In this document: one piece after another, positions 890 to 46,500 of the stretch
Layout of the letters: the number at the start of each line of letters is the position of its first letter
How positions within the stretch are numbered: the stretch's first letter is position 1
Assembly (NCBI RefSeq): GCF_026571515.1
Contig: NW_026854712.1
Location: 1 to 64,000, forward strand
Origin: Ruditapes philippinarum
Lineage: Eukaryota
Direction of reading: 5' to 3'
Length of the DNA stretch: 64,000 bases
The notes under the pieces: generated by a model
Database searches by the model: none
Told to the model about the DNA's origin: nothing
Seen by the model: the letters and a program-made list of their open reading frames with translations, nothing else
Made by a program: the position numbers and the translations under genes

Positions 890-990
890 TTATGTTTCTT
901 TAAGAACCTATTATAGGAAACGTTCATTGAGAATGCGGTATTTTGAAAAGATCGCGCTGTTTCTGATAAGTCGAAATTCATTAACTACCA
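890..990 (+). pseudogene. Degenerate relic of gene B exon 7
   Basis: agaacctattataggaaacgttcatt..ggtattttgaaaagat..ttctgataagt matches 25696-25780 but with indels; downstream sequence matches B intron 7 (~26010-26130). Confidence 0.7.
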
Positions 991-8600: not shown

Positions 8601-11600
8601 TGTGACTGTAAAAGTGAGAATGAAACACTGCTTAACTTGTTTTGGGAATGTGATAAAATAAAGTCATTAATAGCAGATATTACTGAACATGTCAAATCAT
8701 TCAATGTAAACTTTGAGAGAGATTGCAAAACTTTTTATTTTGGGAAATACCAAGAAAATTTGAATGTTATAACATATTTTGCCTATAAACCAAAAGACAT
8801 ATTTATTTATATAAGAGATCATAATGTATTGATCCACATCTGGATGGGCTGAAAGGAAACTTAAAATAAGCATCATCAATTGTTAAAAACACAAACATTT
8901 TGGAAAATAAACTGTCAAATTGGTTCATGGTAAATTTCCCATGTGAAATATAATTATAAATATCAATGATTTGCTTATGATTAAATTTAAGATTGTTACA
9001 AGTGGATTAGTCTACACATATTCATTTTATTTTTCTAAGAAGCTCAAATATTTAAAAACAATAAAAAACAACAACAATATAACACAAAAACTCCGCTAGG
9101 AATGTATCATTTGGATATTCTTATAAAATATTGTTAGAAGTAAATAAAATGCAAAGTGATTCAAGAAGAACTTAATTGAATTTAAATAATTAAATATGTT
9201 GCATTTCATTGTAAGCCATTCAATTAAAAAAAGAAAATGGTATTGCAGTATTTGTATATCAAAATTGTTTTGTTAAATTGTATTGACGTAATTACTTTTA
9301 TCTTAATTGCACATAATATTAATGTTACATGTATATAACATGCATTTGTAATAAAAAATATAAGTGTTTACTAATGTCAGGCAAGTTAGTCTCATAAATG
9401 ATTTTAAGAATGTCAGTCTAAAGGTGTTAGATAAATGTTCCGAAATATATGTCTCTATATATAAGCTTCGTTTTAACACGAACGTACATCTTACTTCATT
9501 TTCCTTGGAGCATTAGTATCAAACATTGGTAATGATGATTAAGTATGCTGTTTTTATAGTACATTTTCACAAGGGTAGGAAGAATGTTATCTATAATCTA
9601 TAATTCTTACAATAGATTTTTATAAAAATATTCAATGGCTACCAATATATTCAATCACGATTATTACTTAGTAATTGGATATTCTCTCAACATTACCTTG
9701 TGCTGATATCCTGGTGCTAAGAATTATGTTTGTGGTTTTGGTAGGATATAAAGTCACGTATGTCTGTGGTATAGAAGGTGAGGTCCATATTGCTTCCTTT
9801 AATGGTTTAGTTATAACAACTGCGTTCAATATAGAATTGTATATTTATTTTAACTCATATGGTTGTAAGTGTCAATTCAAAGGACACTTATTTTTATTAA
9901 AATATGGTAAACAAGTTAAACAAAGAAAGGTGGCATTGAAAGAACGCAACCCCCACACGATCTAGCATCAAGGACCAGCGGTCAGGAACCCATGAGAGCC
10001 CCAAATAAAATAAGAACAGGACATAAGGCAGAGCACGGACAGGATACGTACTCAATAATACTTTAAAGGAAATAATAGTAACCGACAAGGAAATCAGATA
10101 CAATTTATTGAGTAATAGGCCCATAACGTAAAAGGCACATGGGAAGGGAACTTCAAGTACGGGAAAGGGGAGGGACAAAATTTAAAAAAAAGAAACTACG
10201 GGCAAAAGGGAATATACTAACCAAAGACGAGAAAACAACAAGGGACACAAACACAAGTGTCACCCAAACAGTATAAAACAACAAAGACATACATCTAAGG
10301 AATACAGAGGGGCGCCGTTTTGGAATTGTCAGCAACATAAGCATTGCTTGGCAGGTTTAACCGATCATTGGTGACCAAACCTCACTCTTAGCACCACCAT
10401 CGTCCTATAAACGAGGTTTTATTTAACGTCACATACGTTGATTTTTTTCTATTGTTATTGAATAATTTAACAATGTGTAATATTAGATAATGCTTTCAGC
10501 AAGACGCTAATTAAAATGTTTGAATAAAATAAATCTATGATAACTATAAACTTACGTGTTTGAAGAAAATATGGTTTCTTTGTTCTGTTCAAGGTAAATG
10601 AAAGAGTTGTAATGTTCCCATGTTTAGTAACATATCCATACCCTTTAACGTTACTTCGATGAATTTGACTTTTGAAAGTATCTAATAATAAAAAAAGAAA
10701 GAAAAACACGCACAAACAAGAAACGCACAAAATTCAAAGTTTGTCATTATGTTTGGTTGTATTTCTTTTCTACAAATGTCAGTTCTTTTACACCATATGT
10801 CTGCGTATTGTTTTTTTTATTTCAAGATCCATGAAAAGTACATTTATCTGTTATATGTTAAATCATGTCGTATCACAATTGGTGAAATGAACAAATATAG
10901 TGTACCATATTCAAAGATAATTGATATAATACAAACATATGCAAAGATCCAGATGTGCACTATTCTTTGTATGAAATGATAATTTTGTTTGGCGGCCATA
11001 TGGAAGAAATGTTTGTTAGTTGAGAAACGAGGAATTATCTTGTAAACGACTCACTTGAGTCAAGTATATGGATATAGTGCACATCTAGATCACCGTTATG
11101 CATTTACTTTTTTATCGATTCTTAATTTGTAATCCAAATGAAAAACTTACTATCAGATTTGAATATCACATCACTACGTATAATATTCGTCCATAATTGA
11201 CCAGTAATTTGATTCACTTCTACACTCAACGTGTCATTATAGGTAATCGGGAAACGTTGAAATTCAAAACATGTTTGCACATAAATGTTCCAACCAACAT
11301 ATCTTACATCCTCAAATACAACATTGGATATATTAGGATCTGAAAATAATGAGGAAAGTGTTTGCTTAAAGGTAAACTGTCCTAACCAGACAATTTGTAT
11401 CTCAGCTAAATATGTTGTTCATCTTTAAAACATGTTCTCAGTTGTCTCACAAGTTCATGTAAACCAACTAACCAACGCACTTGTATTGTCAACATATTGG
11501 ACACTTGACTTAAAATTGATGAAATAAGAAAAGTCTAGTAAGTCTACTTAATCTATTGTCGTCTGCAAATTTTGAATATTAAAATAGTTAATTTAATTTT

Positions 11601-14600
11601 GTCGATGAAACTCAAGACTTATTGAAACAGATTTACAATAAGTTCTCATTAGAAAAGAATGTAATTCTTTGTATTCTTATATCTATTCTGTAAAGAAAGT
11701 AAAATAACCCTGTTGGGCACACTCTGCAAACACTGGAAATTGCACAACCAAAATGCAATGCGATTGTCATATGGATGTCATTACTTTCCAGGAAAAACAC
11801 AAGCCTTAGGACTACAGTCTGTTTAATTAAACGGAAATAGCAGCAATACCTTCCCTTCCGAGAAAAAAAATCCTTAATAATCTCAATCTTATGAGCATCT
11901 GTATTGCCTCAAATAAAAACATAACAAAGGAACAACTGGTATAATAGTCTGACCTGTCACAATATAGATATTAATAAATGACATGTCGACTGTGTTTAAG
12001 AAAAACGTAATGAATACCATGTTTGAGACATTAAATCTTTTTTAAGGAAACATTAGTTCGTTTCCTGTTACTTTAATCATCCCCGTTTCAGTAATCATCC
12101 GTTTCTTTTTTCACGTCGGGTGGTGGGGGGGGGGGGTGATTACAACTAATAGAATCGGCATTTTAGGTTTGCATCAATATTCCAGAACACTTTGGTGCGC
12201 TTACAACAATGTCAATATCATATAAAAAAATGTGCTGCAAAGGCAAATATAAATATTATTTTGAAATTACAAAGAAAAGTGTGGCAACACGTTACTTCAG
12301 TGTTATTATATTTTTCTGGTCCACCGGTATCATTGATTCAAACACTTTAAGTATATATGAAATGAGTACCGCTCAAGTCGGTGCTAGGGGGCGTGAGGGA
12401 CGTTGCACTTTTCATTATCCCTCATGTACAGACTCAATCAAACCGAGTCAGTAATATCATGAAATATTGTTATGATTAATGCTTCCGATGGATCACACTT
12501 CATCCAGTACTTTATACCTTAACTTTATTCGTACTATTTCCTATGATACCATTAAATATGTTAAACTGACACTATGATTTGAAGCGATTATAGAATTTAT
12601 ACATTACATATCGACAAGCCTTAGAATCAAAGTCCCCGATAATATGAGAGAGCGTGCAGCTCAAACAGGGATAGAAGATAAGTAAATAGAAAACCTTTAC
12701 TGTTTAAAATTATGTTTATTTGTTGATAGTGTGTTCTCAGGGGGAGATTGTAAGTGTATAAGGGAAAACAAAAAAGAAAGAAATGTTATGTTAATCCCTG
12801 CCAGTTAATCCTTAAACCCAAATCAACCATACAAGCATACATGATATAATTGAACTAAAAATATGTCTCTCAGTATTAAATGATATAATATCGTAATGAA
12901 TTTTGAAATGTTGTATTATTAAACATGTTCGACCACCTAAAAAAATTACTGATGAATATTTTTTCTAACTCAACAAATAAAAATTAAAAATATACTATTT
13001 ATCATAAAACTTACATATTGCAGAAAAATCATTGTATACCTTTCGTACATAGTACTTTATACGCTGTGCTGCACATACTCCATACACCTTTTGTGTTTTT
13101 TTCATAAGCAAGACACTTTCCGTTGTTCTTGCTGCCTATTACACTAGTATCTGAAAGGGAAACGACACAGTTATGACGAATACATAAGAGTCACTGAACT
13201 ATTCACATTCGTGTCGCTATTGGTCAATTCTAAACTAAACAACAAAAGAAAAAAAAAATAGACAAAGATTTGTGTTCCCTCTGACGTTGATTAGTCCAAA
13301 CCTATTGGTTAATATATGGAAAAGTAGGTTTTTACAATAAGAATGTTAATATACTTTTCAAGCAAATAAGCATAAGAAAAATAAACGTTCACACACTTCT
13401 ATAAAAGTATTGAAACACTAATGATGCTTTAAAATGCTAATAAGTAAATTGTAACAAAGGTAAAACAACTTCAATTATGATCATGATACCCGTTTTCATT
13501 CTTTCATATATGGACATATAATCATCTCCTCCACCAGCTACCCAAGTTCCGTTATTAGGTGAAATATCACATTTAGGCAGATTTATGTTCTTGCTTGGTT
13601 TTTCGTTTAAACAAATACACTGCGACAAAGAAAACAAAAAGATCCAATTAATTCTTTTACAGCAATAAACGTTGTACTGAAAAAATGATATCAGTTTCTT
13701 ATCACATTGTAAAGTTAGCACTATATCGATATCAAATCACAATGATAAACGTTCTCTTGGATGTATCTATTTAATACAAACATATTGAATAAATGATATA
13801 GTTATGCTCATTAATTAAAACATTATTTCTAAACTTTTCACCCAATAAAATTTAAATAATTTAAATTATTCATCACACAAGACGATTTTTTATTATTTTT
13901 TGTTGTTACCATGTTGTTTATTACCTTGCCTTTGTTTAACCCGACATATTTTGTATAAGATTTATGACACATTGAAAAGCAAATGCCTGGGGTATTCATC
14001 AATACCGGCAATAAAACATCTGGTTCTGTATTGTTTAAAGAGCCACATCCTGTAATATGTAACAATAATTCATGTTTTAAACAGTATATGAGAGCATGTT
14101 CGCAATAAATCTTGACATTACTAAACTAGCATAAGCATCTTGGAGTATGTTTATCGATTTTATTTACATGTGTGACCATTCCTTTGTCAAAGAAACGGAA
14201 TTTCTTACAAGAAAAGCTATATGCTGGTAACAACCAAAAACAATACTATGACATCTTTTCTATTTCCTTTAATTCCTGAACATACTGACCATTGAGTTAT
14301 TACATACATTGAGAATTGTAAACAGGTTTTTTTTTGTTATATAATGGGACATAAGTAAATACGCAGATATTCTGAAGTGAAACAAAAATGTTTATTCCTA
14401 ATGACATACAAAAAAAATTAGAGAAATTATGAATCCCAATAGAACGTCTAAAAGAGCAAAATTGAAAATGTTATAGACTCGGTTTGATTGAGCCCGTTCA
14501 TGGACAATATTATTAAGTGCAAACTACCATCCACTCGCCTAGCACCAGCTTAAGCAAAATTCAAGATTAAACCATGAAATGACAAACATTTTAATTTAGA

Positions 14601-15310
14601 AACATCCGCTGATAATTATGTTAATACAGCGGTTATCATGGAACTTTCAATGTGACACGTTAGTGCCATTCCATGAAAACCGGCACATGGTCCCCAAATA
14701 ATAGAAAGCGTCTTCCCTAAACGAGAAAACAATGGGCGGAACTTAAAATGAATTTTTAAAGGCACATTTGTCTTTAATATCAGCTATTACGAAAAAATGT
14801 TTTTGCTTAAAATTTGTTCATTTTTTTCTAAGCTAAACTAAATTGTTTGTTGTTATTATGATATTGCTTGCAGGCAAATATTTAAAAAAAAAAGATACAA
14901 TGTGAATGCAAATGCTAATTACGAATTTAGAACACTTTGTTGATCCAAATCTTATTTGCAATACTAACAACTGTTTATTTATTTTTGCATTTTCAAAGTC
15001 AAACAATTCCAATTTAGAAAGAAAATAGCTGCAATGAAATAACAAATAATGAAAGAATCATCTACCATTCCAATTTCTTGCTTAATAAAATATGAATTTC
15101 AATTAGTCAATAAGTCATTACCAATGTATGCAAATGCTGTTTCTTTCATGTAATATCCAACCCATGCTTCTTCATTGTCATTTAGGTTAGAAACTTCTTC
15201 AACAATAATTGATGAATTATTTACATGTATCTTTGGTGCTGCCAAATTGCCTTTTCCCCTTGCATCTTGCCACGTAAACGATTCGTTTGATAGTACATAA
15301 TTGGCTGAAA
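2613..15310 (-). CDS. Gene A: multi-exon type I membrane receptor (CTLD-like/WSC ectodomain, Ser/Thr stalk, TM, ~200 aa tyrosine-rich tail), ~620 aa; first exon unresolved (near 17040-17320)
   Basis: Phase-compatible GT-AG exons read by hand: 15310-15122 (YVLSNESFTWQDARGKGNLAAP..AWVGYY..FAYIG), 14049-13925 (GC..NTPGICFSMC..YVGL), 13619-13490 (CIC..KCDISP..AGG..SIY), 13150-13040 (GKCLAY..WSMC..VLCTK), 11339-11151 (GWNIYVQTCF..LWTNIIRS), 10681-10556 (GYGYVTK), 9819-9697 and 6420-6289 (Thr/Ser-rich), 3550-3460 (TM: VSILVSVSVVILLLVAAIVIVIIMLKRR), 3210-2613 (tail, the real part of ORF 2613..3296). No stops; exon order and phases match genes B and C. Confidence 0.85.
3930..5540 (-). mobile_element. 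Decayed LINE (L1/Tx1-like) 3' fragment in gene A intron
   Basis: Minus-strand CDFC..YLFMDC..VQIFW resembles the C-terminal zinc knuckle of LINE ORF2; frameshifted and full of stops; boundaries approximate. Confidence 0.55.
5570..6075 (+). mobile_element. Mariner transposase C-terminal relic
   Basis: ttgcaggacaacgca (LHDNA-like) and ccaccatattctcca..ttggcaccctgcgatttttttctgttccca (PPYSPxLAPCDFFLFP). Confidence 0.75.
6620..8890 (+). mobile_element. Decayed L1/Tx1-like LINE ORF2 (reverse transcriptase region) in gene A intron
   Basis: Motifs RSRAKW..KKPTNYFCNLEK, DQTGFVKGRFVGEN, SGLKFNF, FFDYIWNG, LLHRILATN, LFWEC; many frameshifts and an internal deletion. Confidence 0.85.
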
Positions 15311-16282
15311 CTGCAATGCAAAAATAACATGAGTATAATATATTTTACTGTAAAATACGGTTAGTTAGATTGTATTTCATTCTATTACATGAATATACAC
15401 ATGTGTTCTTTTCAATCTAGAAATGTTTTTCTTATAATTATCTTTAAAATTTTAAATAAGTATCAGGGTCGGTGTATACAGTATCTGTAGATAAAAATAT
15501 AATAAAAAAAGAAGATTTTAGATGTCATTCTTGCCCTTTAATTTTTCATTGCCTGAAACTTTTATATAAACGAGATAACATCACTCACTTTTATCACAAT
15601 CGGCGCATTTTTCTTAATCTTTAAAGTTTCTGTTTAACCATTCCCATAAGGATAATAAAAAATCTGATACCATCAAGTTTTAAATATATTTTGACACTTG
15701 TGAAATGGTTTGAAACATTATTAATGAATAAAACAGATGCCACATTTGTGTAGAAACGTCAAAAAATATTGACCTTTTTCAGGGACGGTTCAAGCCGCGT
15801 GATTGCATATGATCCCGAAGTAATTATGGATAAGTTCATATCTGATAAAAATTCATCGGTATCATATATATGAATGATTGACGTTATCTTGTTTATACCG
15901 TGTCTGTGAACTCGTCTTATCAAAGGTGATTTAATTTCAAGTATACGTACGTGTAAAATACCTCTCGTGTTTGTGTTTTAAAAAATGAAAAATGTGCTAA
16001 TTTGAATGTGTATTCTTTATATCATCTTAACTATGTCATACGATATTTATTATGAGAGCTGAAGCGTATTTCGTATACACACAGTGTAATTACTATTGAA
16101 ACATAAAAAATGAAAATAAAACTTGCTTCTAGATTCTACAGTAGATCTACTTTGAACATACAAAAAGTAAGCAACCCTGTAGAAGTTAGTGTACTGAACA
16201 CAGGAATTTCATCGAAAGAAATTTCAAAGAATTATTTTTTAAAAAAATGCTACTATTAGATATACCAAGTGTATTAAAGACA

Positions 16283-16420
16283 TTAATACACGTCTTAGTA
16301 GTGCTAGAAGGTGATAAACGGCCATGAAATGAATAATAGCCTCTGACTGAAGACCTTGGGGCCATTTTTCATTTTGAGGGCCGATAATCACCTTCCGGTC
16401 CTAGTCTGCCGTGTATTAAT
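16283..16420. repeat. Imperfect palindromic (hairpin) element
   Basis: ttaatacacg..gaaggtgat..cggcc..aaatga arm mirrored by tcattt..ggccg..atcaccttc..cgtgtattaa. Confidence 0.7.
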
Positions 16421-18730: not shown

Positions 18731-21700
18731 ATGTCAGGTGTCAAACAATTGATTTTGTTGCTTCTTTTTCGGATATGTGTTTCTACAGGTAATTATAACT
18801 ATTCAGTTAACCTAATTAGTTGCGTATCAAACATATTATATTAAGCAATTATGTAAATAACTTATGTAAAAAAGAATTGCTTGTACATGTATTATAAAGG
18901 TAGACCGTTTTAGGTTTTTCATAATTATAATAAACTATTTAATGTTCAGGAAATGTTTTGTCGTCCCTTTGTGCATGTTGTGTTTTCGAGGCAAAGAAAA
19001 ATAACAACGTGGTGGAGTAAATCATTTATCATAGTCTAGTGACAAATGATTGTCAGCATGAGAAAATGATGTTAAGAAATATACCTCGAATAAATTGATA
19101 ACTAGCTTTTAAAGTTCTTATTTCTGTCGTTAGCAGTCCTTCATACTTATACAATGATGTGTTGAACGAAACTAGTAAAAATATATAAACATTGTCATAT
19201 AAGTTGTTCATAAAATCATGCAACTAAGCGTATGAATTGTAAAACATCTTGAAAATCATGCAAGTAGTATCATGTGATGATAGCTTTTGCTGAAAAAAAG
19301 ATAGCCGATAGATGGTTGAATGGCTGTTGTACATACTGTTAATTTTACTATGTGACTAAGAAAATTGTATTGTTACATAGGTAACAGTACTTGTAGACTA
19401 GTTACGTGGAGCATTTCTAGCACACAAAGTAGCCGTCATTGGATTTTCGATTCAGCCTCTATTTTTTTCGAACTTAGGGTCATCATCAGAGCGACAATAA
19501 TCACCAGAAAATTTAGTTGTTTGTAACCAAAAGTGCTTTCCGGGTCTCAAACATTGTATGTTTGAATAGTCAAAAGGTAAACATCCGTTAGCAACGGAAG
19601 TTATTGCAGAGTAATATTTATCAAAATGAAACAAGCAGATGATTTAAACATACAAAGTTTATACATTTAGATCTGGTTGAAAATGTTCAGATCATTGAAG
19701 TATTTGTCTTGGGTAATAAAAGAAATAACACACAGGTTTGTAGACTCCTTCCGGGTGAAATTTTACCAACAAAATTATGTGCTTTTTATAACTATATTGT
19801 TTGTCGTTGTTAATATATTTTGCAAGTTTTATCAATACAATCTGTCTTGTTTTTCATAAGGAAGTGAGATGAGTAAAATATGTAAGTTTCAACAATCGAT
19901 CGCCCGATTTGAAACATGATATATCTCATAGCAGCAGGTGGGCTACTTATATTGAGTTCGCGTATCAAAACATTTTTTAACAATACAGATCACGACTTTT
20001 AAAATACTGACAGGTTTAAAAGGAAAATAAATAATTTTACAGATATTTTTTTTATCTATAATCGATAAGGTGGACAATAAAAGTGGGGGTAGCTTTAGCG
20101 AGTGATTTGTTAGTTTAAAGGTCAATTAAACCCTAAAATGTTACTATTTATATTGTTTAATAGCTGATTAAATTGTTGTTATGTTACAATTTACCAAAAG
20201 ATTTCTCATTTACCTTATATCTGAGCCATCTTTATTTTATTTTGCGTTTTGGAAATGAGTGCAGTTATAGTGATTTTGCATGGAAGTCAAAATACCATAT
20301 TGTTTGCTACTTGTACAGCAATTTGTTTCATATTCAATGCATTTCTTTCAGATGGTAAGCATCTGCAGGAATAACTTATATATACATACATGATTTTGAA
20401 TTTTGCGTTATTTATATGACTATTCTGGCACCTTAAAAAGTCTATTGTAGGTACATACTCGTACTATGTAGATACATTCTAAATTCCAGATTCATACAAT
20501 GAATTTATGACATGGGAGAAAGCAAAAGACAATTGCATGTTAGCAACACCGGAGTTTATTTATGATGGTGAAATCTTTACTGTAAATGATGATCAGAACT
20601 TGACAAATAGTATGGAAGGAAGGTGGCTTGGATACTACAAAAATATGCGGGGGTTTGAGTATTTTGGTAATACTATATTAATTTAAGTATTCTATCATCA
20701 TTTTTGATTCTATTGATTCTATATTTTATCATTCTTTTTGGGTTACTTTAAATCTCACATTTACGTCAAAATAAGAATCAATATATTCATAACTGACTTA
20801 ATATAAATATCATCAATTTGCTTGCTTATAAGGCCAATTTTTTTACATCAAATATGTCATTGCAGAAAAACAGTTTTGTATTATTTATAAGGTAATGAAG
20901 TTGATCATTAAAGTTTTTAACGTTAACATTTGTGGCTAAAAATGATGTTATTTGATTTCAAATACATTTAGGATGTATTAACTATCCGGAAATGTTTGGA
21001 ATTCCACCGAAACGAATTGGAAATAATTCACCAGGAAATTGTTTTTCCGTATGTTCACGAAGAGCAACATTTGTTGGACTAATGGGTCAAGAGGTAAAAA
21101 TAGTAATTACTAAAATGCTAAAAAATAGAAAGGTAGAGAATCCATAGTTTATTATAAGTTTTGTCATTGTATTAACACATCTAATTCTAATTATTTTGAT
21201 CTTATTACTAACCAGTAACCATTAATCGAATAAAACTTAAAACACTAAACCTAGTATGCGTAAAAACAAAATAATATTGATTTTAGATATCAAATGTTTT
21301 TAAATACATGGACATTATCAAGAGTCTAGTTTTTTTCAACTTTGTATTTCGCGCATCTCGGTTATATGACTTGTTAAAAAAGTTAAAATGTATCAGTATT
21401 TCATTTTATATTGTTTGATTTGAAATTACAGATATTTTGTGCTTTTACAGTGTTATTGTTTTAAAACGATCACAGCAGAAGAGAAAGTTGTTAGCAATGC
21501 GTCATGTAATGAATCATGTCCGCCACCATCTGAAGGTTTAGCTTGTGGGGGACAATCATTTATTTCTTTATATGTGGTTAATAAAAAAGGTAAGGAAGAT
21601 GTGCATAGGTGATAAATGTACAAAATATCATATACATCATAATAATATTTAGACAACAAAATGTTTAAATGATATGCGTATGCCCTTCAATGTATTTCAC

Positions 21701-24700
21701 CATATTATCTACTTCACTTGGGTAAATAACCCTCGCACTGAAATGTATAAAAGCATATTGATTTTATAAGGGTCCTATGAGAGTTTTAGTCTGTGTTTAA
21801 AAGTTGAAATGAACCTTTTGTGCAATTTAGAAATTATCTATAAAAGCAATACTAAGGATATGTTAATGTTCATCCATGCTAATCTACAGAAATAAGAAAC
21901 TTCGACGGGAACGATAGCTAAGGATGAGCATTAACATACTTAGTGTCCAGCTTTATTTGTCTTCATTAATATTCACTATATTTCTTCACTACCTGTCAAT
22001 TTTATGAACGCGGTTCTTAGAGGCACTATGAACAATAGAAGACGAGTATGAATGGAATCTAAATTGGTTCTTCTAAGGAAACCAACACATATAATTTTTA
22101 AGAAATACAGCGTTTTCATTGGATGACAAATAAAGCTGGACATCAATGGCCATTAAATTTTTGAGTTACAATAAAAGGAGATGATCGTCATTTGACATGT
22201 CATTATTCTTTAAACACACTAGTTATCAAGGGGGAGAATCACGCCATTCGTTACCCAAGCAAACAAGATGGCAGATGCAGCCGAAAAATTAGTTTTTTTC
22301 CTTTTTTTCCCTGAAATTAGTAATTTTCTTGTGTAAATGTACATATAATAATCTTCTTCACAATTTTCCGGGCACACAGGATTTAATTTCATGGTGTTTT
22401 GTCCCGTACTTCATCTGAAATGCGCGTCACCATAATAGATGCGAGAGAATTTTCCACAGGTTTGATCGTAATAACCTACGGCTTCTTCTCTCAAATTCAC
22501 TGTTTCGTTTACATATATGCTTATTGACTGAAACCGCTGACTTAAATAAGTTGTAATACGTCGTCATCTAAGCATTCATGACCATTCTGGCTAGATTTAC
22601 GCTCTAATAATAATATCGGGGCATTTTCCGGAAATGATAACGTATGGCGCACAAAATATCAATGATAACGTACGGCGCACAAAATATTAATGATAACGTG
22701 CGGCGCATTTTTCTTCTTGGTGGACTTCCATTTGTCCAGTCAGCTGATAATGAATTATTTGTATGTCGGAAATGATAGATATCTGAAAAAATGTTTGTCT
22801 GTTCAGAATTAAATAATTGAACAATGCTGCACCATTGGATATAAATATCTTTCTAGCTGGTGGCATAATAGATATTCGTTGTTAATATACTAACCTTTTT
22901 CTACCAATTAAAACACACATGTATAGTTTGAGATTATTTTTGTATAAAGAAAAGCCTCCACTTTCAATGAACATTGTATATTGTTGTCTTCACATTAATG
23001 TTCGCAATTATGTTCGTATCCCCTTGTCAGAAAGAAGAAACGCATTCAGCAGAGCAGATATTAAAAAGGTATGGACGGCTAGATATATTTTCTTTTCCGG
23101 TTATCATAAACGAAAGGAACGTCATAATTTGATCAAAACAATTACATGCAATTCATTAATTTGCCTATCATAATCTGGCGATACTTTATCTAAAATAATG
23201 TTCATACCACCAGAGGTGCCTACGTTAGCGCTCATATTTTGTGCGCCATACGTTCCATTTCCGGAAAATGCATCGATATTTCCATCACAGCGGTTATTCT
23301 AGCTATAATGGGCATCGATGCTTAGATGACGACATATTACAACTTTGTAAAGTCAGTGGTTACAGTTTATATACATATATGTAAATGAAACAGTGAATAT
23401 TAGGGAGGAAGCCGTACGTTATCACGATCAAACCGGTGGAAAATTATCTCGCTTCGATTCTGGTGACGCGCATTTCAGATGAAGTACGGGACAAAACATT
23501 ATGTAATAAAATCCTGTGTGCCAGGAAAATTGTGAAGAAGATTATTATATGTACCTTTACACAAGAACATCACGAGTTTTAGACAAAAAAGGGAAACACT
23601 AACTTTTCGGCTGCATCCGCCATCTTGTTTGCTTGGGTAACGAATGGCGTGATTCTCCCACGTGAGTTATTATATTGTTAAAACACTCACTTTATTTTGA
23701 TCTTTTATTGACTTTTTTCTTAAGGGAGTACATAATTTTAAAAATCATCATATCTTTACAAATTCAGTTCAAAACTATTTCCATGCCGACAATGAAACTG
23801 ATATAATTTATATAGTAACTGCCATATATTTCCTTTAAACATAGATTTGAAATTTCAATATATTTTATAAGGAACATGACACAACACAATCAGTTAAGAA
23901 GTCTATAAAACAAATCATATAAGCCATGATCGCTCCTATTACATTAGTTGATTATGTTCTTAAAAGCTTATAATTTGTTGTATTTCTAGCTTTCTATATT
24001 GCCTGCAATCAATGTGGCTTAAATCTCGTAATTATTAAGATGGCATCTTATCAACACGGATCCTGGACATTAAGATTTTTAAACATGTTTAAATATTTTT
24101 ACCATTTCAGTTCTAAACATCCGTAAGGTGTTTGGTCAAAATAAAAATAAAAGTAATTGCGTCAGGCTGGAAAGCGACAAGAAACTTTTGTGGGATCAGT
24201 GCGACTCTGCGTTACACAATAAATGCTATGATGGTAAATATTTAAAATCTTCAAGTAGTAAATAGGAAACTGAAGCACCATTGTCATCGATCCATATTTA
24301 AAATTCGGACAGTTATAGCACATGCCAAAATGTTTGGTACAAATATGTGCTCTATATACGCTTGTTATACAAACACATCTCCCTTTATATGAACTATTTG
24401 GTGCTTTATATGAACTATGTGGTGTTTTATATGACCTATTTGGTACTTTATATGAACTAATTGGTACATTTTTTTACATTTAACCTTTGAAAACCTTGTA
24501 ACTTGCAGTGTTCAATTTTAGTAACAATATTAAACAAATTCATAACCGTTCGATTGGAACAGGGTAAATTATAACAATATGTGACAATTATTTCGCTTGA
24601 ATATGTAAACTGACCCATAAAACGTCGTTAATTATATTTATTTTATTAATAATAACCAAAAATCTCTATACATATTTTAATGCAACTGTACCTTATGTAA

Positions 24701-27700
24701 AAGATGTTCAGGTTGTCAAAAACAGCCTAAAACTAAATGTTATGTCTAGAAATAATTGTGTATTCTGACTGATTACAGCAATGTACGATGCAATAATGCA
24801 TACATTACAACATGTCTTACATGATTCCATTTATGATCCCTAAATTATTTGTTGAACATTTCAGTTTTAATTTTTTTTGTCGTTTTATCTGATTTGTTTT
24901 GTAGTGATTTGTAGTTATGTCCTAATGTAAATTAAAAGCATTGATCTCATACTCCCATCAATTTTAGGAACAACAGCTTACGATGTGCCTGCTCCAACGA
25001 CAGGTCGGCAATATTTTCCATGGTATTGGGCAAATAACTTATGTTTTGGCAGCAATGTTCGACCATTTTTATATGAAAATGCTGTGAACTTTAACGGAAC
25101 AACTTTAGAGTCTTGGACAGGAATGTGTCGCAGTCTGTCAATCTTCACATTCTCAGGTATCCTTTAGTTTCAATATAGCGTTTTATTTAGTTTACCTTAG
25201 TATGCATTTCTGCGTTAAACCTGCGCTTGCAGGAATACATTTACGGAGGTGAAAGCATGCATCAATGGACACAATAACGCGATAACGTATCATTATTGTA
25301 CGTTCTTTATTATATGAACACAAGATAATCACAAAAGATTGATTTATGAAGAACATATATTTGGATTTTATATCTAAGATGAGCGTTAAATCATAAAAAG
25401 GCATAATTTTTGATAGGTTAATTGGTTAAAAAAATAAGCAAAAAGAGTCGAGCTATCAATTTATCTTTTATTTGACTTTTGTTCTCCTACCAGACATTTC
25501 CGTGCAAAGAATTTAACGAATCATTTAAGTTTTGTAATTTGTACCTGACGTCAAACTCACGCGTAAAATGCCTTGCAAAACCGGTAAAAAAACTTACAGA
25601 ATCCCTTATATTTTATCTAATGTCTTTGCTTGTGTGCCCCGGTATTAAATGCGTCCTTATTCATTAGCAGATGTTAATATATAAAATTTTCTTTTAGAAC
25701 CTATTATAGGAAACGTTCATTTGGAATACGGGTATTTGAAAAGATGTGATGCTTCTGATAAGTACGAACTTCATTTTACTAGAAACATGCAAGAACAAAA
25801 GAAATCGCTGTGCAAAAGCGATAGACAAACATCAAAAGAGCAACACAAAACCGGTGATGGTGGAAATTCAGGTACAACTTTATATAAAATAGTTGTTGTA
25901 ATTCAAATTTAATAAGAAAAATATATGAATAAAAATTTAATTGATATAAAAGACAAACCGCTTATGAAGTTTTTGTCTTTTTCATAAAGCTAAAATGATT
26001 ATAGACAACAAACATAATAAGGACACTGTAGATAATCATTTTTATTATAAAAACTATACATGCACCTTTACAAAGAATAAAAAAGACGTTAATTTTTTGG
26101 AAAGTCTTAATGTAAGGAACCCAGCCTTAATTAAACGATCAACTAAGTTATGATACGAGGGTTGTCCAAACAACTCGTGCACTGCAGTTATTGTCGTGAG
26201 AGTTATTGATAGAAAATCATGAATTATATATCACGTGAAGGGGAAATCTGTCTCAAATAAGAAAACAAAAGGAAAAGCCGTGTAACTGAAGTGTCATGAA
26301 AACAAATCGTCAAACACTTACCTTGGTAACGAAATAGCGGCGCACGACAAAAAAAGTGGGTTAGTTCATGACTTTGTTGCACGACAGTTTTCTTTAAACA
26401 CTGCACATTAATGTCAAAATTCGGGGAAAAGTGTGTGTACGTATTCCTGACATCCAAAGAAAAAATGACGTCATTTGCCTTATTATAACGGTCGTAAACA
26501 AACATTTCTGTGTGGTCGTCAATACTGTAATTACGTGAAAATTTCAGTCGCTAAACGTCTGGAAATACGGACGATCATAACATTTGGGCAAGTATTGGAA
26601 AAACACCGACAGATACCTACAAAGAATTTAAAAGGGCAAGGGTGACAACTTCAGTGTAACGAAGGCTGGTTTTTGAATGGCACAAATGCTCTGTAGAGGG
26701 TCGAGAGGAGGTAGATGATGACAACCGGTCAGGCAAACGTTCGTCCATAATGCCGGCGCATGCGTCGAGGGTTGTCCAATATACTCATGCACTGGTGGAT
26801 GTACGTTGCATAAGATAAAAAAAAAAACTAAAAATGCTTTCCATCAATCATTCCTCTATTGACAGTAAAACAAATTATGACATAATAAGCAAATGCCACT
26901 TTACAAGCGACAAAAAATTAATACAACCACAGTAATGAACTAACCCATCTTTTGTCGTGCACCGGTATTACGTTACTAAGGTAACTTAATGACAATTCTT
27001 TTTCACAACACGCCGGTTGCACGGCTTTTTCTGATGTTTCCCCTTCAAATGATATATAATTCATGTTTTTTTAATAATAACTCTCACGACAATAACTGCA
27101 GTGCACGAATTTTTTGGACAACCCTCGTATAATATATCTTTATTCAAGGGTATTATATATCATGAGAGTTTTGTTACTTCTTGACCACTGACCTTTTGAC
27201 CACTGACCATTTGACTATAGACCGATTGAACACTAAACTACTACAACCTTTCTCGAAAGAGCCATTTGTATACTTGACTGCGTGTTAATCTGTGTCCAAT
27301 CTGAACAATACCATGGTAATGTTTAAACTTTTCAATATTACCTCTCTGATCATTCCTTGCCAACTTGTCGTTTAACCGATTCATTTCAAAACCATCTTTT
27401 TTCCTCTTCTACCTTATTAAGTAATAAAATGTATTAATATTTTTCATTTCATTGCAAAAAAAGGGTTCCAACGTATACGTAAAGTTTAAAGTTATAGAAA
27501 AGTGTAAAAATGCGTCTGCTATACGCTACTTTTAAACCGGTACCGAGTAGATATTTTACTCGTGATTCCGCGGTGGACGCCGCTGTCATTCTTAAGCTAT
27601 CTTACCTGATGGTTTGCCCAGACTGTAGTTGTTTCTTAAGTCTATTATAATCGTGAACCGCATTGTTAAATCCTCATAACGAAACATTCGAAACAGAAAT

Positions 27701-28817
27701 ATGAACGAGGTCAGAACAACCATTAATTTAAGGATATCTTTTGTGTGTGCAACATTTGTTCTGCCATGGACACAATCGAGCTCTGGTGCGGATGTAACAT
27801 ACATTAAAAACGAACCAGAAGACTACCATTACAATAACAATTTGGCATCGCACAGGACAGTGAGACAAGAGCCAAATCGTAGTTAAACAATCATCATTTA
27901 CATACATTACATTTGAATATCAAGTAGAGTTTTAATATTTAGAAAGAAGCAAATGTTGCACACAGATACATTCTGTTACTTTATAGCAAAATAGTTTGCT
28001 GTAACAATTATATTTGCTTTTCTATCATTGTATATTTAAAGATATTATTTGCTATACAAATATCATTCATGTTTTTATTTTCAGATACAGATGTAGGTTT
28101 AATTGTAGGATCAATAGTTTCTGCTACCCTGCTTATTGTTACCATAGTGATAATTCTTGTTCTAGGCAAGCGGTAAGGTCATTCTCCTAAGAATGTTAGT
28201 TTTTACATGCATTATTTTTCTGTCTCTTCAACATTAAGGGGCTCGGGTCACATAATTTTCCATATATTCGTGTGTGTGCGTGCCTCTGTGTTTCTGTTTG
28301 AAGAAGTGTACTTCATGTCCGGCTCATAACCTCTGCATGCTTTATGGGATTAAAAAATCAATACAAATGACCACCATCAGTATACAATATTCAGCGTGCA
28401 AAACCCTGATCTAATGTCAAGACAACTTAAGAGGATTAAATTTGGTGAATTTGTTATTATATCGAATAGTACAGTTGAAGGTCTTTTTAGATCTGTAATG
28501 TCTGCATGTCAAATGATTCATGAAATGTTGTAAGCGTATACATTTTTTATAGGAGGATACTCTTAGTTCAATGCTGCAAGACAAAAGACCAGACACTGAG
28601 TTTTACCAACCATCAGGGTGCTAATGAGCATGTTGTAACAGGAAGAAGGAATTCAAACGAGCTCGCTTTGCCCGGCCAAATTAGTGGTTCCTCATACCAA
28701 AATGTTGAAGTACCATCTAGGGAGATCACTGATCCGCATACATATTGTGCACTTGAACATATCGGACGGAGAACAAATAATATGGAAAGTGAATACAGTC
28801 AACTGTCGTTATCTTGA
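18731..28817 (+). CDS. Gene B: multi-exon type I membrane receptor (signal peptide, CTLD-like/WSC ectodomain, TM, ITIM-bearing tail), ~445 aa
   Basis: Exons: 18731-18788 (MSGVKQLILLLLFRICVST), 20490-20666 (TWEKAKDNCMLATP..RWLGYY..FEYFG), 20972-21093 (GC..NNSPGNCFSVC..FVGL), 21451-21589 (CYC..SCNESC..ACGG..SLY, completing an 8-Cys WSC pattern), 24111-24233 (NCVRL..WDQC..NKC), 24968-25156 (PWYWANNLCF..SWTG), 25698-25871 (EYGYL..KSLC), 28085-28172 (TM: VGLIVGSIVSATLLIVTIVIILVLGKR), 28553-28817 (tail to TGA). All GT-AG and in frame; the exon 2 acceptor is ambiguous. Confidence 0.85.
21943..22141. repeat. Small inverted-repeat element (MITE-like)
   Basis: tgtccagctttatttgtc .. gacaaataaagctggaca. 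Confidence 0.65.
22227..23664. mobile_element. Non-autonomous DNA transposon (MITE/foldback) with ~450 bp TIRs and 6-bp TSD AGTTAT, in gene B intron 4
   Basis: caagggggagaatcacgccattcgttacccaagc.. is inverted at ..gcttgggtaacgaatggcgtgattctcccacgtg; agttat flanks both ends (22221-22226, 23665-23670). Confidence 0.9.
26156..27127 (+). mobile_element. Mariner-derived non-autonomous element with TA TSD, in gene B intron 7
   Basis: TA|cgagggttgtccaaa..tttggacaaccctcg|TA. Inverted arms ~200-250 bp. Internal relic of the transposase N-terminal HTH (EKTPTDTYKE..FEWHK..EGREEVDDDNRSG, ~26560-26745). Confidence 0.9.
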
Positions 28818-32529: not shown

Positions 32530-33136
32530 TCAATAGGTCCCGTTCAAATAATTGTATGTGTCATCTTCATCATGCAGATTCTATTTGAAATCCCTTCTAA
32601 CATCATCATAATTGTTTTCTTCCCTGTCAGGAATACCATAAACATTGTCTGTTTTGTTATTTTTCAAGATGTGTTTGCTTATGTGATTATATGTATCTTC
32701 TCCAGTTTCGGTTAATTTTTCAGAGAGTTCTTTATCACATTCAGTATTCTGTAGTGCTTTCAGTTTTGTAGCAGCATTCTCGGTGGTGTCATAAACGTTA
32801 TTAAATTTGGTACCAAACTTTTAATGTTAATGTACAATATTATAAACGTCGCTTATATCTGTTTCATCTTTCCTGGAATTTGAAATATCACCATCGATAT
32901 GAGATTCCCTGGAGCCAGGTTCAAGAATGAAATAATTATATGCATAATTACTACTGTCTACGTCAAGATCTTGATAAAGGGTTACATTATTGTTTTCTTT
33001 AAAATAGCTTATTTGTTCATTTTCAGCTCCTAGAGATTGATTATACAGATTGTTTTCAGCTTTATTCTTAACGGAAGTTTCTTTAAATGAATCATTCCGA
33101 GAAGAACTTTTGAAACACGTGTTTGGAATTTTGCTT
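32530..33136 (-). pseudogene. Orphan pseudo-exon: duplicate of gene A terminal (cytoplasmic tail) exon
   Basis: Colinear with 2613-3210 and keeps the acceptor and terminal NGTY*. It has in-frame stops (TAA twice near 32821-32830, TAG near 32581). No matching upstream exons found before gene C. Confidence 0.85.
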
Positions 33137-40500: not shown

Positions 40501-43500
40501 GGCTGCAAGGCTGCCAAATTCAGGCTGCTAGGCTGCCACACTGCCAAATTCACGAACATCTAAACATTAACTTATGTCTTCCCTATCAAATTATTAAAGA
40601 CATTTTTTTATGTTTTGCGCTGATAAAGGCATATAGCCAAAACGTTTGCGAATGAGAAATATTGATAAAATAAAATGAGTATTTTCATTTTCCGTATTTT
40701 CACTGTAAAAAATATTTTTCACTGCAGTGAAAAATATTTTCTGTATTTTCATTGGTGTCTTGTCGGACTACTTTCTTCTAAATTGAGCCAATACACAAAA
40801 TTTAAGGGGAAATCTTTCAAATTGTAATACATGTAACAAAAAGAATATAATTAACAGAAAATTCTAGGTTTTTCTAGAAATGCAGGATTTTATTCCATCT
40901 TGTGGTATGAAAATTATCATATTTCACTCGTCGCTACCGCCACCCAAATATTTAATTTCATAAGACTCGATGAAATAGATCCTGTATTTAATGAAAAAAA
41001 ACTTGAATATCCTCCATATTTATGACTATTTAAAACAAAGAAGATTTTCAACAGGATAAGATTTATTGCTTTCCTTACTGTATTTAATGATTTATTGTAA
41101 TCATGCAACTTTTATGAGCATTTCTGGGATTAGTTTAAAATAGCATCAACAAGACCTCTCATTTCAAACCGACACAACCATTTTAAGACTTCAGATGTAC
41201 AAGTGTGACCGTGACTCTTATGCTGGAGACGCTACATGTCGTTAACATATCTATGCTAAGTCCATTCACAAATGACAGTATTATTGACTGGAACCGACAA
41301 TGTTGCACTTTTATTTTGAGCTTATACATGTCGCTGAAAACCCGACTCTTGCGCATGACATATTTACATATAGCCATTGGGCCCAACACACTAATGTCAA
41401 GTGATTTTAAAATCCATTCGGGAATGACAGATTTGTTGACTGAACATTATCATCAATGCACTTGAATGAGAAAAAAAATCATAATGAAGTAAGACCTGTG
41501 TCTGTAAATATTGACGAAGAAACAAATATTGTTGAAATCAAGTAAGACCTTGACCTTGAAGCCATTTACCTACTTGTCGCACGTGACACATGGTCATATT
41601 GTCAAACCTATAAATGTCAAGTTCTGTTGAAATTAACCTAGGAAAGACAAAATAATTGTTGGCTGGACATTATCATCAACGCATTATTATGAATTATTCA
41701 TATCATAACTGGACGTATAGCTGAGATATTGACCTTTCTACTAGGACCTAATTCTTAAAGGCGTCTCGATCAGTTCCGTCCATGAACACCGAGCCTGCAT
41801 TTTTTCAAAATTTCCGAATTGGGCTTTCTTTAGGGATTCTGTTTTTCTCTATTTCGTTGTTAGCATGTCCAACATATTTGTGCAAAGTTTAAAATCCATA
41901 AAGAAATAACTGAATTGTTGACTGGACCAAAAATCAGCGCACTTTAATGTAAGAATTACTTTCGAATCGAAGTGTGACATTGACCTTTCAGTTAAAGAAC
42001 GACAAATTCAATCATAATTCGCTTCACATTTATGCAGACATATTTCAACATTCTTCTATAAATAACAAAGTTATGGATCAGACGGATGCAATGACGAATG
42101 GTGGGACGGAACATTTAAACTGTAGTTTCGATTTGATAAAAATCGAAGATAGCTTGTCGTGTAGATAACCAATGTTCAGTAATATAGACATATAGATGCC
42201 TTATATGTTTAAGTATTTTGATTAAAAATCGTACTTAGTATAATATACATATTATAAGCCTGTAATCTATAAAATATCTTTCAAAATTATTGTAAAACAA
42301 TAAGAAAAATAAAAGAATAAAATAAATATGTTAAACTTTGTATACTTCCTTAATGAGGAATGACGCATGCACAAGAGTATTGCTAAATACCAATGCGTGG
42401 TGGATAACAGAGCCAGTCTATGTTACAATTATTCGAGAATCCGCCTTAAACTTTCGGAAAAAACATAATTTCACCATTTATAGATCTAGAATTTTAAAAT
42501 ATATTTCACTGATACTCAATGCCAAATTTCTAGCTTTCGGTGCATCTCTGAGAAGAATATTTTAAAAATATTTCACTTTTGGGGTATATTTTAGCTCAGT
42601 CTAAGTTTCAGAAGAAATTTGAATGTACTCAACAAGTTATACGCAATTCAAATAAAGCGAAGCGTTTCAAAACTACATTTAGATAAGGCTACGGAAACCC
42701 ATAAGTGATCAACGTTTCGCTTGACACTCATTAGTTTGTCTATACCAACGTATCTATATTGGAAAATTGTTTCATTAAATATTCATTTCTTACATCATTG
42801 CAGTTACAGCTTATTATGTCCTTTCAAATGAAACTGCCTCGTGGGACAATGCAAAAGGTAGGGGAAACTTTGCAACACCAACAATTCAAGGGAATAACTC
42901 TTCTTGGTTTATTATCAATATAACATCTGACCTAAATGAAAATGAAACAGCATGGGTTGGATATTATAAGAAGGAAACAGCCTTTGCTTACATTGGTAAG
43001 TTCTTATTATATATCATGTCATTACTTGTACATAAACAATAGTTGGTAATTGCTTGTTTTGCCATGCCTTAACAGCAGTATTCTTGAAAAAATGAAGATT
43101 ATGTACGTATTATCAATGAAATCAAACACTTTTTAAAGTATCATGAACAACAACCTTCACGTTTATAAAAAAGATATATAAAAGATATCGGAGTATATAA
43201 AAAGATAGAGCAAAAATATAAGATAAAACCATTGACCATTACTTTTGACCTTGATCTTGAAATGAGCGTCTGGGTTTAATTTACAATTATTATCATCATC
43301 TTCATATATTGAATATGTTACCGGGGCGTCTCCTCAATGCTTTCTCTGATTTTTTATTCTTTTTTTTGCGATCGATATTTTGTCAAAGTTGGACAGCATT
43401 TGATAATCATGAACGTTATTCCAACGGGTCATAAGTAAGAAGATAAGTAAGAAAGGATTACTTGATAAGCCTTTTGATCTTGAACTGTAACATACTAAAT

Positions 43501-46500
43501 GCGAAACCTAAAATATAAATTGCAGATGTCGTTTTATTGAGCATCTCAAAAGATTCAGAGAGGACACATCATTGCTGGTTTAGAACTGTTACCAAGGACT
43601 TTGAATTTCATTTTCTTGAAGAAGCTATCTAGGTTAGCAAATGAAACTTCGATGGCTCTACTCAGGTGCCCGCTCGTGCCTGAAATAAGGCAAGGATGGG
43701 CACCTATTAAGGTCTTTCTCTAACAGTAGAAAGCCTGTGTTGAGTTTCTGCAACGTAAAACCCTACCCAAATATAAAAGTTGCGTATTTCAGGATGTAGC
43801 CTATTAAACAAAACAGTACCAAATGGTTTGTTGCCGACAAGGAATAATTCCCCAGGCAATTGCTTTTCATTGTGCAAAGAAACACATCACAGTTATATTG
43901 GATTAAACAAAGGCAATGTAAGCTCTTCGAAGAAAAACAAGATAATATTTCGTGTTTATCTGTAAATATCATTTTGTCTCCAATAAAATACTACGGAATA
44001 GCACAGTTGTTTAAAACGTAATTTTACTTTCAGCAACTAGTTTGTATTTTCAAAATATGCCAAGGCTATTAACTAGTTTCAGCATAAGTATTTTTATTTT
44101 CTTGAAATAGCATATAAGAGTAAAAAGAACTGTTTAGATGTTCATTTTTGTATGTTGTTGCAGTGTTTTTGCCTAAGTGAATTACCAAGTGAAAACATAA
44201 CATTGAGTAAATGTGATATTTCTCCTAATGGAGATTGGATTGCTGGTGGAAATGATTGTATGTCATTGTACCAAAAGATCAGAGCGGGTATTATGATAGT
44301 TTTAATAATTGTAAGATGAATAACTTTAAAATACTATTTGTACAAAACCTTAAATTTGTTTTAGCTTTCACTTTTAATAAGTTTCGCTTCTAACTTTACC
44401 ATTTGTACCGCGAAACATAATAAAATGGCAGTAAACATGTTTCTGTTGGTAAGGTATTCCATCGTGTATATCCAGTAACGCCGGGATGCGAAAATAACTA
44501 AAAATAATAAATGAAGGATACTAGTACCTGGCAGGATTTACAACGACGTAAGTAAACTGGCAATTTTGTTTTTGTGTATTACCGTTTTGAGTGTAATTTT
44601 GGCTTTTTTCGACTCTTACGAGGTACGTGAATAAACATAGTCTAAAGAGTGAGAACAATAAACATTTCTATAATGAAAAAGGCATTTTTTTTATAACTAC
44701 CATCTCAAAAGATATTCAGAAATTGCTATTTATGATAAACGGTTTCAACACCGTTGTATACTAAAGTAAGAAATCTAGTAATTGCATTGCTTCGTACTCA
44801 TTTCAAGACATATATTACGAAGCTTATAGCTCTGTGGTTGCAGGGACCGATTCGGTGTCTATATTTACGCAATCAAACTAAAATCAATTCTGTATGAAGT
44901 GAATTAAAGTTCCCCCTACAAAATTTTTAGAATAATGCTCATACTCACCGATTAATGGCGTTAAACACGTGTAATAATTCAGAACCATATATGAGAAAAA
45001 CCTCATTTTCCGGTGTTACCGTGAAGCACTATCCACGTACATCGGCGTAACCTTATAAAATAGAGTTTTAAAAATCACATTTTATCAGCTTATTTTCAAT
45101 TTTCTATGCCACCAGGTGTTAAGAAAATGTCATTTGCCTACCAAAAGATCGAAATTATACGGTATTATCTGCATTGTTGTACTAATAAGAGTCGACAAAA
45201 AACAAAATTACACTCAAAACGGTAAGCATGCCATCATTTTCACGAATGATCTTAAAAATTAAGCAATTTCATCGAAATAATCTTGATGACGGTAAATTAA
45301 AGTATTACGTCTTTGCAGCCGTATACGGCTATTTCTTTTTTCAGTTTGTTTAATGACCAGATTACTTACCGCGTTGAAAATCCTGTCAGGTATCCGTTAT
45401 TTATTGCACAATTCTGCTTAACTTTTGCACAAATCGTTCATAATTTCACATTCCGGCGTTACTTGATATACACGGTGTAATCGTAATCGACTTTTTCTTC
45501 TTAGATATACATGTTACAAGAGGCGGGAATAGCGGAAAATGTCTTGTGTTTGAAGCAACGAATAATTATCTTTATTGGACACGGTGTGAAGAAAATGACA
45601 AAAAACTATGCAAAAATGGTAAGTGTTTTCAAGAGACTCAAAAACAAAGTCTGTACTTTTCAACTATTCAGTTTCTTTTATCTCATTGAATTAACAGTAT
45701 ATTCTTGATAATTTACAAATATTTATTGTATCTCAAATTTACATATTGCTTTATATATTGCATTTTCTATGTACGGTTGTTCATCGTTTATTTCTATGCA
45801 TTTTTAGTCGGTTAACATGACGACATGTTAATATGTAGACAAATGTACTATAAAATTTCTTGATAAGATTGGTTTATATATTTAACCAAATGGTTAATTA
45901 TTAACAGAAAAAAACTTAGCACACCGTTGACTAGTGCTGCACTAAGACGGCCTAAGTACAATGCTCTGTATCAGAGTGTTTTAATTTTGTTTTGGTTTTT
46001 TTGTGTCAAAAAAAACAACAACAGATTACTGATAATTTCTTTAATTTTGACTACTTTAATGACTTTAATTTATTATTTCACACTTTACTATAAATTTCTC
46101 AAGAAAAAATGCAAGAACTGGAAGAACAATGTATGAAACGTGTAAAATAATAAATGAGAGTCATTAAAGAAGTTATAAGTAGTTCAAAATAAACAACTTA
46201 ACAGTAATTAGTATTATAAATCCCCCATCCAATTCAAAATATTTATTATATTATATTTATTATTTTATTATAGTCTGATCTATACATACATATACAATTA
46301 AAACAATATACATACAGTAAATTGGATAGCCATTCTTTTAAGAATTATAACAGACATTTACAAGTAAAACAGCATATTCCAAGCATTGAATGTTATACTT
46401 AAAATAATTAAATTGTACTAATATTCATACCTACAACATAACTGTATGAGTAATTACATTAGGGTTGTTAATTTTAAAATGGAAGAATGAAATCTCATAA

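Follow-up and report, generated by a model that had tools for sequence, protein, structure and literature searches.

A short cytoplasmic tail with ITIM-type motifs is a mobile module in a WSC/lectin-like receptor gene family of the clam Ruditapes philippinarum

ITIM signalling in molluscs is known from a few Ig-type receptors. Does a clam gene with another kind of ectodomain, whose short tail carries tyrosine motifs of this type, encode an inhibitory receptor, and where did its tail come from? The question is raised by gene B of Ruditapes philippinarum (P0001; RefSeq XP_060584841.1, LOC132740835), located at 18731-28817 (+) in the window, the 64,000-nucleotide stretch of contig NW_026854712.1 analyzed here. 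Joining its nine exons at the annotated coordinates yields 1335 nt whose translation equals P0001 letter for letter, and eight of eight introns are GT-AG. The product is a type I membrane protein of 444 aa consisting, in order, of a signal peptide, a WSC domain, C-type-lectin-like segments, a membrane helix, and a disordered 87-aa tail. Exon 1 (18731..18788 (+)) provides the start codon and the predicted signal peptide (P0001 residues 1-19, with a hydrophobic helix at 2-17 in the model). Exon 8 (28085..28172 (+)) encodes the membrane helix (residues 336-358), which has no charged residue and is followed by a basic stop-transfer KRR and then the tail, a topology that puts the ITIM-type motifs on the cytoplasmic side. 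Exon 9 (28553..28817 (+)) holds the entire tail together with the stop codon.

The frame of exon 9 is the one that the original prediction had assumed. The exon follows an AG acceptor in phase 2, matching the phase 2 end of exon 8, and the tail is translated from 28554; the two other frames close within about 25 codons, and all eight paralogous tail exons inspected use this acceptor and phase as well. A search for RNA runs containing 24900-29200 listed none, an outcome that counts neither for nor against expression. Reads from four raw RNA data sets (4-12% of each, at 90% likeness, tissues not stated) covered the tail bin at a depth of 0.3-0.5. The reads came mostly from intronic repeats and none crossed an exon joint of gene B among the 15 of 16 joints listed, so the exon 8-9 splice rests on the RefSeq model and the sequence. 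Intron 7 contains a non-autonomous transposon (~26154-27129) with terminal inverted repeats and TA ends, which we take to be mariner-like and to which many RNA reads from other copies map.

As first proposed, the tail has exactly three tyrosines, every one in a Yxx(V/L) context: Y405 in SSYQNV (28689..28706 (+)), Y421 in HTYCAL (28737..28754 (+)), and Y438 in SEYSQL (28788..28805 (+)), six residues from the C terminus. The first and last fit the ITIM consensus (S/I/V/L)xYxx(I/V/L), both with Ser at -2, the weakest permitted ITIM residue; HTYCAL is a third YxxL that is not an ITIM. The region is predicted to be disordered, with a block pLDDT of 32-43 and values <50 over residues 386-444. A juxtamembrane Cys-Cys, a putative palmitoylation site, is present at 28572..28577 (+), but it does not serve as a sign of inhibition: Cys occurs within the first 16 residues of 36 of the 47 family tails and is common to long tails, so this family-wide trait says nothing on whether a tail is inhibitory or activating.

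Shuffling indicated that the motifs exceed chance. Among 200,000 shuffles of the tail, all three tyrosines fell in Yxx(I/L/V) in 0.6%, at least two ITIM consensus sites arose in 0.9%, and both conditions held in 0.14%; a repeat with 3,000 shuffles of an 89-aa tail gave two ITIM consensus sites in 1.1%. The family offers a fairer background. Proteins of at least 250 aa with a membrane helix by hydropathy were kept from a set of 100, yielding 41 tails of at least 60 aa once six short-tail records and five tail-less ones were left out; a few of these tails could come from receptors that are distant or unrelated. These tails have a median length of 203 aa and a median of 11 tyrosines; 40% of their tyrosines (177/443) already lie in Yxx(I/L/V), so YxxL alone is unremarkable, and 25/443 fit the ITIM consensus. 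By the same rule, 19 of the 41 long tails have at least one ITIM consensus site and three have at least two. At family rates, the probability that three of three tyrosines fit YxxPhi is ~0.06, falling to ~0.003 with two ITIMs added. When each tail was shuffled on its own, an ITIM excess was found in only 5 of 44 tails, these being three short tails and the Mercenaria tails of P0033 and P0051. According to the available text of PMC11460946, an intracellular ITIM/ITSM consensus occurs in 1,562 human genes, and a consensus match alone is therefore weak; the gene B shuffle p of ~0.01 lies within the range of 41 of the 51 known human inhibitory receptors considered there, and the tail shows both features used there as filters, shuffle excess and a disordered region.

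The tail is not unique in its genome. A search of the R. philippinarum genome with it returned eight matches from nine candidates, comprising six short tails and two long ones (P0006 and P0007). The short-tail copies are 85-92% identical to gene B in DNA, and each of the six exons has an uninterrupted frame, their stop codons lying at nearly equal positions. In these six same-genome copies, eight of the nine key columns (-2, Y, and +3) are invariant and the ninth is V/L; with 41 of 87 columns invariant overall, the enrichment has a hypergeometric p of 0.009, which is post hoc and calculated on copies related by descent. All six copies retain Ser at -2 of the two outer sites, and two have lost the Asn at +2. 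Summed over 15 non-independent pairs, pN was lower in the 18 motif codons (0.052) than elsewhere (0.143), with pS of 0.16 and 0.20, respectively; whole-tail dN/dS was 0.37-0.81 in 13 pairs and >1 in two. Since the six copies share descent, motif invariance is partly inheritance. Two of them carry a 6-aa insertion that supplies a fourth tyrosine, again in YxxL, and alters the spacing. The motif conservation in orthologues proposed as a check does not extend beyond Ruditapes: a word-limited search found four matches among 129 candidates, all Ruditapes, and the closest Mercenaria protein (P0008) is long-tailed and lacks either ITIM. The closest ectodomain paralogues of gene B, P0006 and P0007, likewise have long tails with neither ITIM.

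YxxPhi sorting signals use the same letters as these tyrosine motifs, and lectin-like receptors are often endocytic. The three tyrosines all fit YxxPhi and lie in a disordered tail, and gene B might accordingly be an endocytic or scavenging receptor in which three unphosphorylated AP-2 mu2 sorting signals remove ligand without signalling. We consider this quite unlikely, as sorting signals do not need the Ser at -2 that all six copies keep at both outer sites, and the surroundings of the family's tyrosines, acidic or rich in Asn, are typical of kinase sites.

The spacing of the tyrosines (16 residues between Y405 and Y421, 17 between Y421 and Y438, and 33 between Y405 and Y438) bears on another alternative, an activating or adaptor tail in which Y405-Y421 or Y421-Y438 would be ITAM-like for Syk/Shark and pYQNV would recruit Grb2. 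Y405-Y421 reads as YxxV-x12-YxxL, an ITAM-like spacing with V, and Y421-Y438 has x13. The strict ITAM consensus (YxxI/L-x6-12-YxxI/L) is matched by the paralogue P0012 and by 11/41 long tails, but gene B, with V at +3 and x13, matches only if V is allowed. The YQNV of gene B also has the form of a pYxN (ITT-like/Grb2) site, YxN occurs in 4/6 short-tail copies, and the genome includes a Grb2-like SH2 exon. In the available texts, an ITT-like motif activates in DNAM-1 (PMC7226588), and three tyrosines that could be ITIM or ITAM are also found in Hydractinia Alr1C/D (10.1101/2022.03.25.485889). However, the insertion shifts the spacing and the Asn at +2 is lost in two copies, yet the Ser -2 outer sites persist in 6/6, and we regard an activating or adaptor role as unlikely on this evidence.

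The short tail aligns almost gaplessly with residues 1-80 of the P0006 tail, at 41-43% (score 145 versus a shuffle maximum of 61); it is homologous to the membrane-proximal third of a P0006-type long tail. Relative to P0006, P0007, and Mercenaria P0008, it lost the Tyr of NEYALP/NEYHSY, which is not YxxL, and lacks the distal YDTT/YNHI/NVYG array. Y405 was gained in the short-tail lineage, where long tails have ADPNI or ADSNA (ADPNI to SYQNV); Y421 descends from the family motif HTYFVL (to HTYCAL); and the Y438 site is in register with GIYNIA/GIYNVV (GIYNIA to SEYSQL). Simple nonsense truncation of a long tail found no support, as the short-tail 3' UTR has no residual likeness to long-tail coding sequence in 6/6 copies (p 0.37-0.85). 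A conserved three-tyrosine spacing across the family was rejected: HTYFVL alone is widely shared, and the spacing of the first and third tyrosines varies.

To what ectodomain is this tail attached? A search of 1.84 billion representatives recovered 91 proteins, and 18 of the 20 representatives looked up carry names, from Ruditapes, Mercenaria, Mya, and Mactra with one weak Saccostrea match. Exons 3 (20972-21093) and 4 (21451-21589) encode the WSC domain (20972..21589 (+)), identified by PF01822 over residues 77-153 (E 6.3e-7, 30 bits, over the cut-off) and by the fold of the predicted model, which matches yeast Wsc1 7pz2 at Z 11.8 (rmsd 4.2, 95 aligned residues); a WSC match at E 0.01 was found in 29 of 53 aligned relatives. 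The fold match to Kremen1 and Wsc1 spans Z 10.7-11.8, but unlike Kremen1, gene B has no kringle or CUB, and lectin-like halves flank its WSC domain. Exon 2 (20490..20666 (+)) encodes the putative first half of a C-type-lectin-like fold (W-x6-C ... WLG), with CTL-type chains aligning from model residue ~22, and exons 5-7 (24111-24233, 24968-25156, and 25698-25871; 24111..25871 (+)) encode further putative C-type-lectin-like segments and a stalk. CTL-type chains matched the model at Z 6.5-8.1, their 80-111 aligned residues spread over model residues 1-324 with ranges from ~20 to 310, and residues 28-78 of the paralogue P0077 matched the first half of CTL at Z 2.5-4.1. Pfam Lectin_C had no match in 53 family members, the gene B ectodomain has none of the EPN/QPD/WND calcium-sugar motifs, and Foldseek returned nothing at or below E 0.001 for the two models. 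The ESM Atlas gave the family's own mollusc cluster of 60 (0.97) and then WSC and Lectin_C clusters at <0.9, which are leads only. Weak Pfam matches (STb_secrete, CoV_E, RIFIN, and others) fell below the cut-off and were taken as chance. In 31 full rows out of 53, both Cys35 and Cys308 were present in 26, only Cys35 in two, only Cys308 in none, and neither in three, a joint loss with a Fisher p of 0.002 that represents just one or two independent losses. A C35-C308 disulphide is predicted. From this covariation and the alignment ranges, we infer a nested ectodomain in which one lectin-like domain (~22-68 plus 279-310) may enclose the WSC domain together with a second domain of lectin-like type that is permuted. 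No description of a WSC/lectin-like clam family was found in the openly available main texts searched; the available text of PMC10140915 mentions WSC with bivalve C-type lectins and contains no occurrence of ITIM or ITAM.

Trees of tail and ectodomain disagreed. In a 17-row set, four short tails formed one clade with 100/100 support, but in the ectodomain tree of 17 rows the four short-tailed genes fell into three starred clades, each with long-tailed members: gene B and P0002 with P0006, P0007, and P0008 (clade X); P0012 with P0070 and the first C6433 gene (clade Y); and the C724 gene C with P0025 and gene A (clade Z). On 11 annotated rows, placing gene B, P0002, and P0012 together in one ectodomain clade was rejected by an AU test (p 1e-103). 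In clade Z, the short tail probably belongs with the gene on C724, an assignment made by DNA order and phase with no protein model: a membrane exon lies near C724:43870 in compatible phase, and the short tail is at 50971 with no family tail between. A genome search with the membrane exon found only two loci, below the number from direct inspection. The short tail is one clade on three ectodomain clades, a mobile module in an array of long-tail and short-tail genes. This mobility across the receptor array is the main point that goes beyond the original prediction.

Gene B is itself pieced together from neighbouring paralogues. Its ectodomain is 71-77% alike to P0006/P0007, but its membrane exon is only 13-29% alike to theirs and 77% to that of P0012, which makes exon 8 of ectodomain clade Y type. 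At the DNA level, 16419-20364 is 89% like the P0009 locus (P0009 belongs to clade X and its long tail is broken), and 18121-20364 is only 75-76% like the P0002 locus; exons 5-9 are 92-97% like P0002, and 22211..25543 (strand not assigned), which shows 96.4% identity with the P0002 locus, is a tract of recombination or conversion. An inverted-repeat element at 22226-23665 (448 bp arms, 86%), common to the P0002 locus, lies at the left edge of this tract. Window positions 3391-20364 are collinear with C6433 60000-83653, which contains gene A and the 5' end of P0009 (89% over 4 kb), and the position of gene B corresponds by synteny to that of a long-tail-type gene on C6433, where the gene array is mixed. 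C3199 and C6433 are either haplotypes or duplicates.

Exchange of this kind could also have spread a trimmed remnant by unequal crossing-over in a birth-and-death array, leaving a decoy or weak dominant-negative whose ITIM fit is accidental in a YxxL-rich family. Broken family pieces do lie nearby (a tail with stops at 32533-33138, the broken long tail of P0009, and an extra base in gene C), overall dN/dS is weak, RNA depth is very low, and the family-rate probability for three YxxPhi sites is not small. Set against these points, the six short-tail exons all have open frames that end at almost one position, the motif codons have diverged less than the other tail codons, Y405 is a new rather than an inherited site, and a second clam independently evolved an ITIM-rich mobile tail; we judge a remnant rather improbable.

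That second clam is Mercenaria, in which the tail-swap pattern appears to be repeated independently with an unrelated ITIM-rich tail. P0051, with four ITIM consensus sites, and P0058, with one, have ectodomains 82% alike and do not share tails; P0051 and P0033 share an ITIM-rich tail (71%) on ectodomains only 40% alike. Homology of the Mercenaria ITIM tails to the gene B tail was rejected (p 0.34 and 0.45). Among P0051, P0058, P0033, and P0017, two ectodomain clades carry the unrelated tail (IVYESL and repeated SAYESL), and the ITIM-rich members have near-identical non-ITIM partners beside them.

Would such a tail find partners in the clam? Scanning the genome for SH2 domains yielded 59 matches out of 94 candidates; 22 were translated and three compared with PDB. 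C10217 contains SHP2-type N- and C-SH2 exons and has PTPN11 as its best PDB match (one of two compared). The short SH2 fragments on C9644 and C688 have SHIP2 and Grb2, respectively, as best single-domain matches, although the SHIP-like exon fragment is 42 aa and summed two-domain scores put SHP2 first for both. The clam genome has an SHP2 orthologue and SHIP-like and Grb2-like SH2 exons. C5835:52997-56873 (G000) has three near-identical SH2 exons in tandem, presumably Csk-like.

The claim that gene B is an inhibitory receptor recruiting an SH2 phosphatase was borne out in part. Motifs beyond shuffled expectation, a disordered tail, retention in 6/6 copies, and the SHP2 orthologue speak for it; the lack of conservation in orthologues, family-wide YxxL, and the YxN and ITAM-like spacing speak against it. 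The genes are linked, similar ectodomains bear different tails, and recombination is evident from the tree conflict and the mosaic structure of gene B, as expected of paired receptors. A charged membrane residue of the DAP12 type is absent in 8/8 membrane helices inspected, and the partners carry long Tyr-rich tails. Because a short tail with two ITIM-type motifs has been shuffled onto several ectodomains, gene B appears to be a damping member of a paired-receptor-like family, with the short tail as a recombining module that would recruit SHP2/SHIP, a reading to which we give about an even chance. By sequence, gene B resembles an ITIM receptor. Ligand binding by the WSC/lectin-like ectodomain would cluster the receptor, and a Src-family kinase would phosphorylate Y405 and Y438. 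The tandem SH2 of clam SHP2 could then dock on the phospho-tail, or SHIP could do so, directly or via Grb2 at pYQNV as in TIGIT. The docked phosphatase would dephosphorylate signals begun by long-tailed relatives with a similar ectodomain, whose activating role is itself inferred.

Parallels exist in other animals, described here from the available text of each source. The Hydractinia Alr1C/Alr1D and Alr2A/B/C genes (10.1101/2022.03.25.485889) are, like gene B, clustered invertebrate type I receptors with a single-exon three-Tyr tail, two of the tyrosines with Ser at -2, that can be read as ITIM or ITAM, and similar ectodomains bear different tails there too; Alr proteins, however, have Ig ectodomains and a known allorecognition role, whereas gene B has WSC and lectin-like domains, and the likeness implies no homology. 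In the Botryllus Fester family and FcoR (PMC12582321), ectodomain and intracellular trees also disagree as a result of intergenic recombination, and ITIM and other Tyr tails are exchanged, but these are Ig superfamily proteins in a two-chain receptor/co-receptor system with swaps also by splicing and alleles, in contrast to one chain and genomic exons in the clam. Gene B is a new mollusc case of the logic known from Hydractinia and Botryllus. Vertebrate paired receptors such as Siglec-5/14 and PILR (PMC13358205; Siglec ITIMs are covered in PMC5877582) share linked genes, similar ectodomains, conversion, and one ITIM member; the clam geometry is reversed, as the ITIM member is short-tailed and its partner has a long Tyr-rich tail without a charged membrane residue. 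TIGIT resembles gene B in a short tail with an ITIM-type site (PMC11841013) and a YxN site that can recruit Grb2 and SHIP (PMC7226588), but has an Ig domain, and the YxN and ITIM of gene B overlap on one Tyr. Invertebrate ITIM receptors that recruit SH2 phosphatases include oyster CgNCAM1, which has two ITIMs and interacts with CgSHIP2 (PMC11841013), and Drosophila Draper-II with Corkscrew (PMC8092387); Draper puts activating and inhibitory tails on one ectodomain by splicing, and the ectodomains of both precedents are unrelated to that of gene B.

If the inhibitory reading is true, tail exchange, apparently twice, would extend the pair logic of NK receptors, Alr, and FcoR to bivalves and to another ectodomain, and gene B versus P0006/P0007 and Mercenaria P0051 versus P0058 are defined test pairs for the balance of microbe or self recognition in farmed clams. 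More broadly and tentatively, clams may possess a large, undescribed WSC/lectin-like paired-receptor system with the nested fold, in which inhibitory ITIM tails had separate origins in Ruditapes and Mercenaria and were carried as exon cassettes from one ectodomain clade to another, each specificity having an activating (long) and a damping version. Should the tail prove to be just a sorting signal or a remnant, this is an ordinary birth-and-death array.

Gene B has family neighbours on both sides. Gene A (2616..15311 (-), exons partly mapped), a clade Z gene with a long Tyr-rich tail at ~2616-3212, stands head to head with it, and gene C (42803..59130 (+)), also of clade Z, has a C724 counterpart followed by a short tail exon. 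The membrane exon of gene C (59044-59130) has one extra A relative to C724 that shifts the frame before the splice donor, either a lesion or an assembly error. Contig ends C3199:76012-81172 and C2947:27832-22783 overlap (85.6% over 5.3 kb), and since C2947 resumes the C724 likeness where C3199 leaves it, the short tail on C2947 might be that of gene C, separated from it by a large insertion. The annotated tails of P0005, P0009, and P0010 are 13 aa long owing to a frameshift in the long-tail exon that follows (C6433:88524-89174), and this broken exon led us to reject the idea that these 'tail-less' proteins are designed decoys. At 32533-33138 (-) there is a broken gene A-type long tail with in-frame stops, and at 769-1316 (+) there are pieces of a P0006-type gene. 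C4498:8828-3100 (-) is a clade X gene with a gene B-type membrane exon and no tail exon before the contig end. Decayed retroelement-like frames, endonuclease/reverse transcriptase-like by eye, occupy 46500-50000 in gene C and 4100-8900 in gene A.
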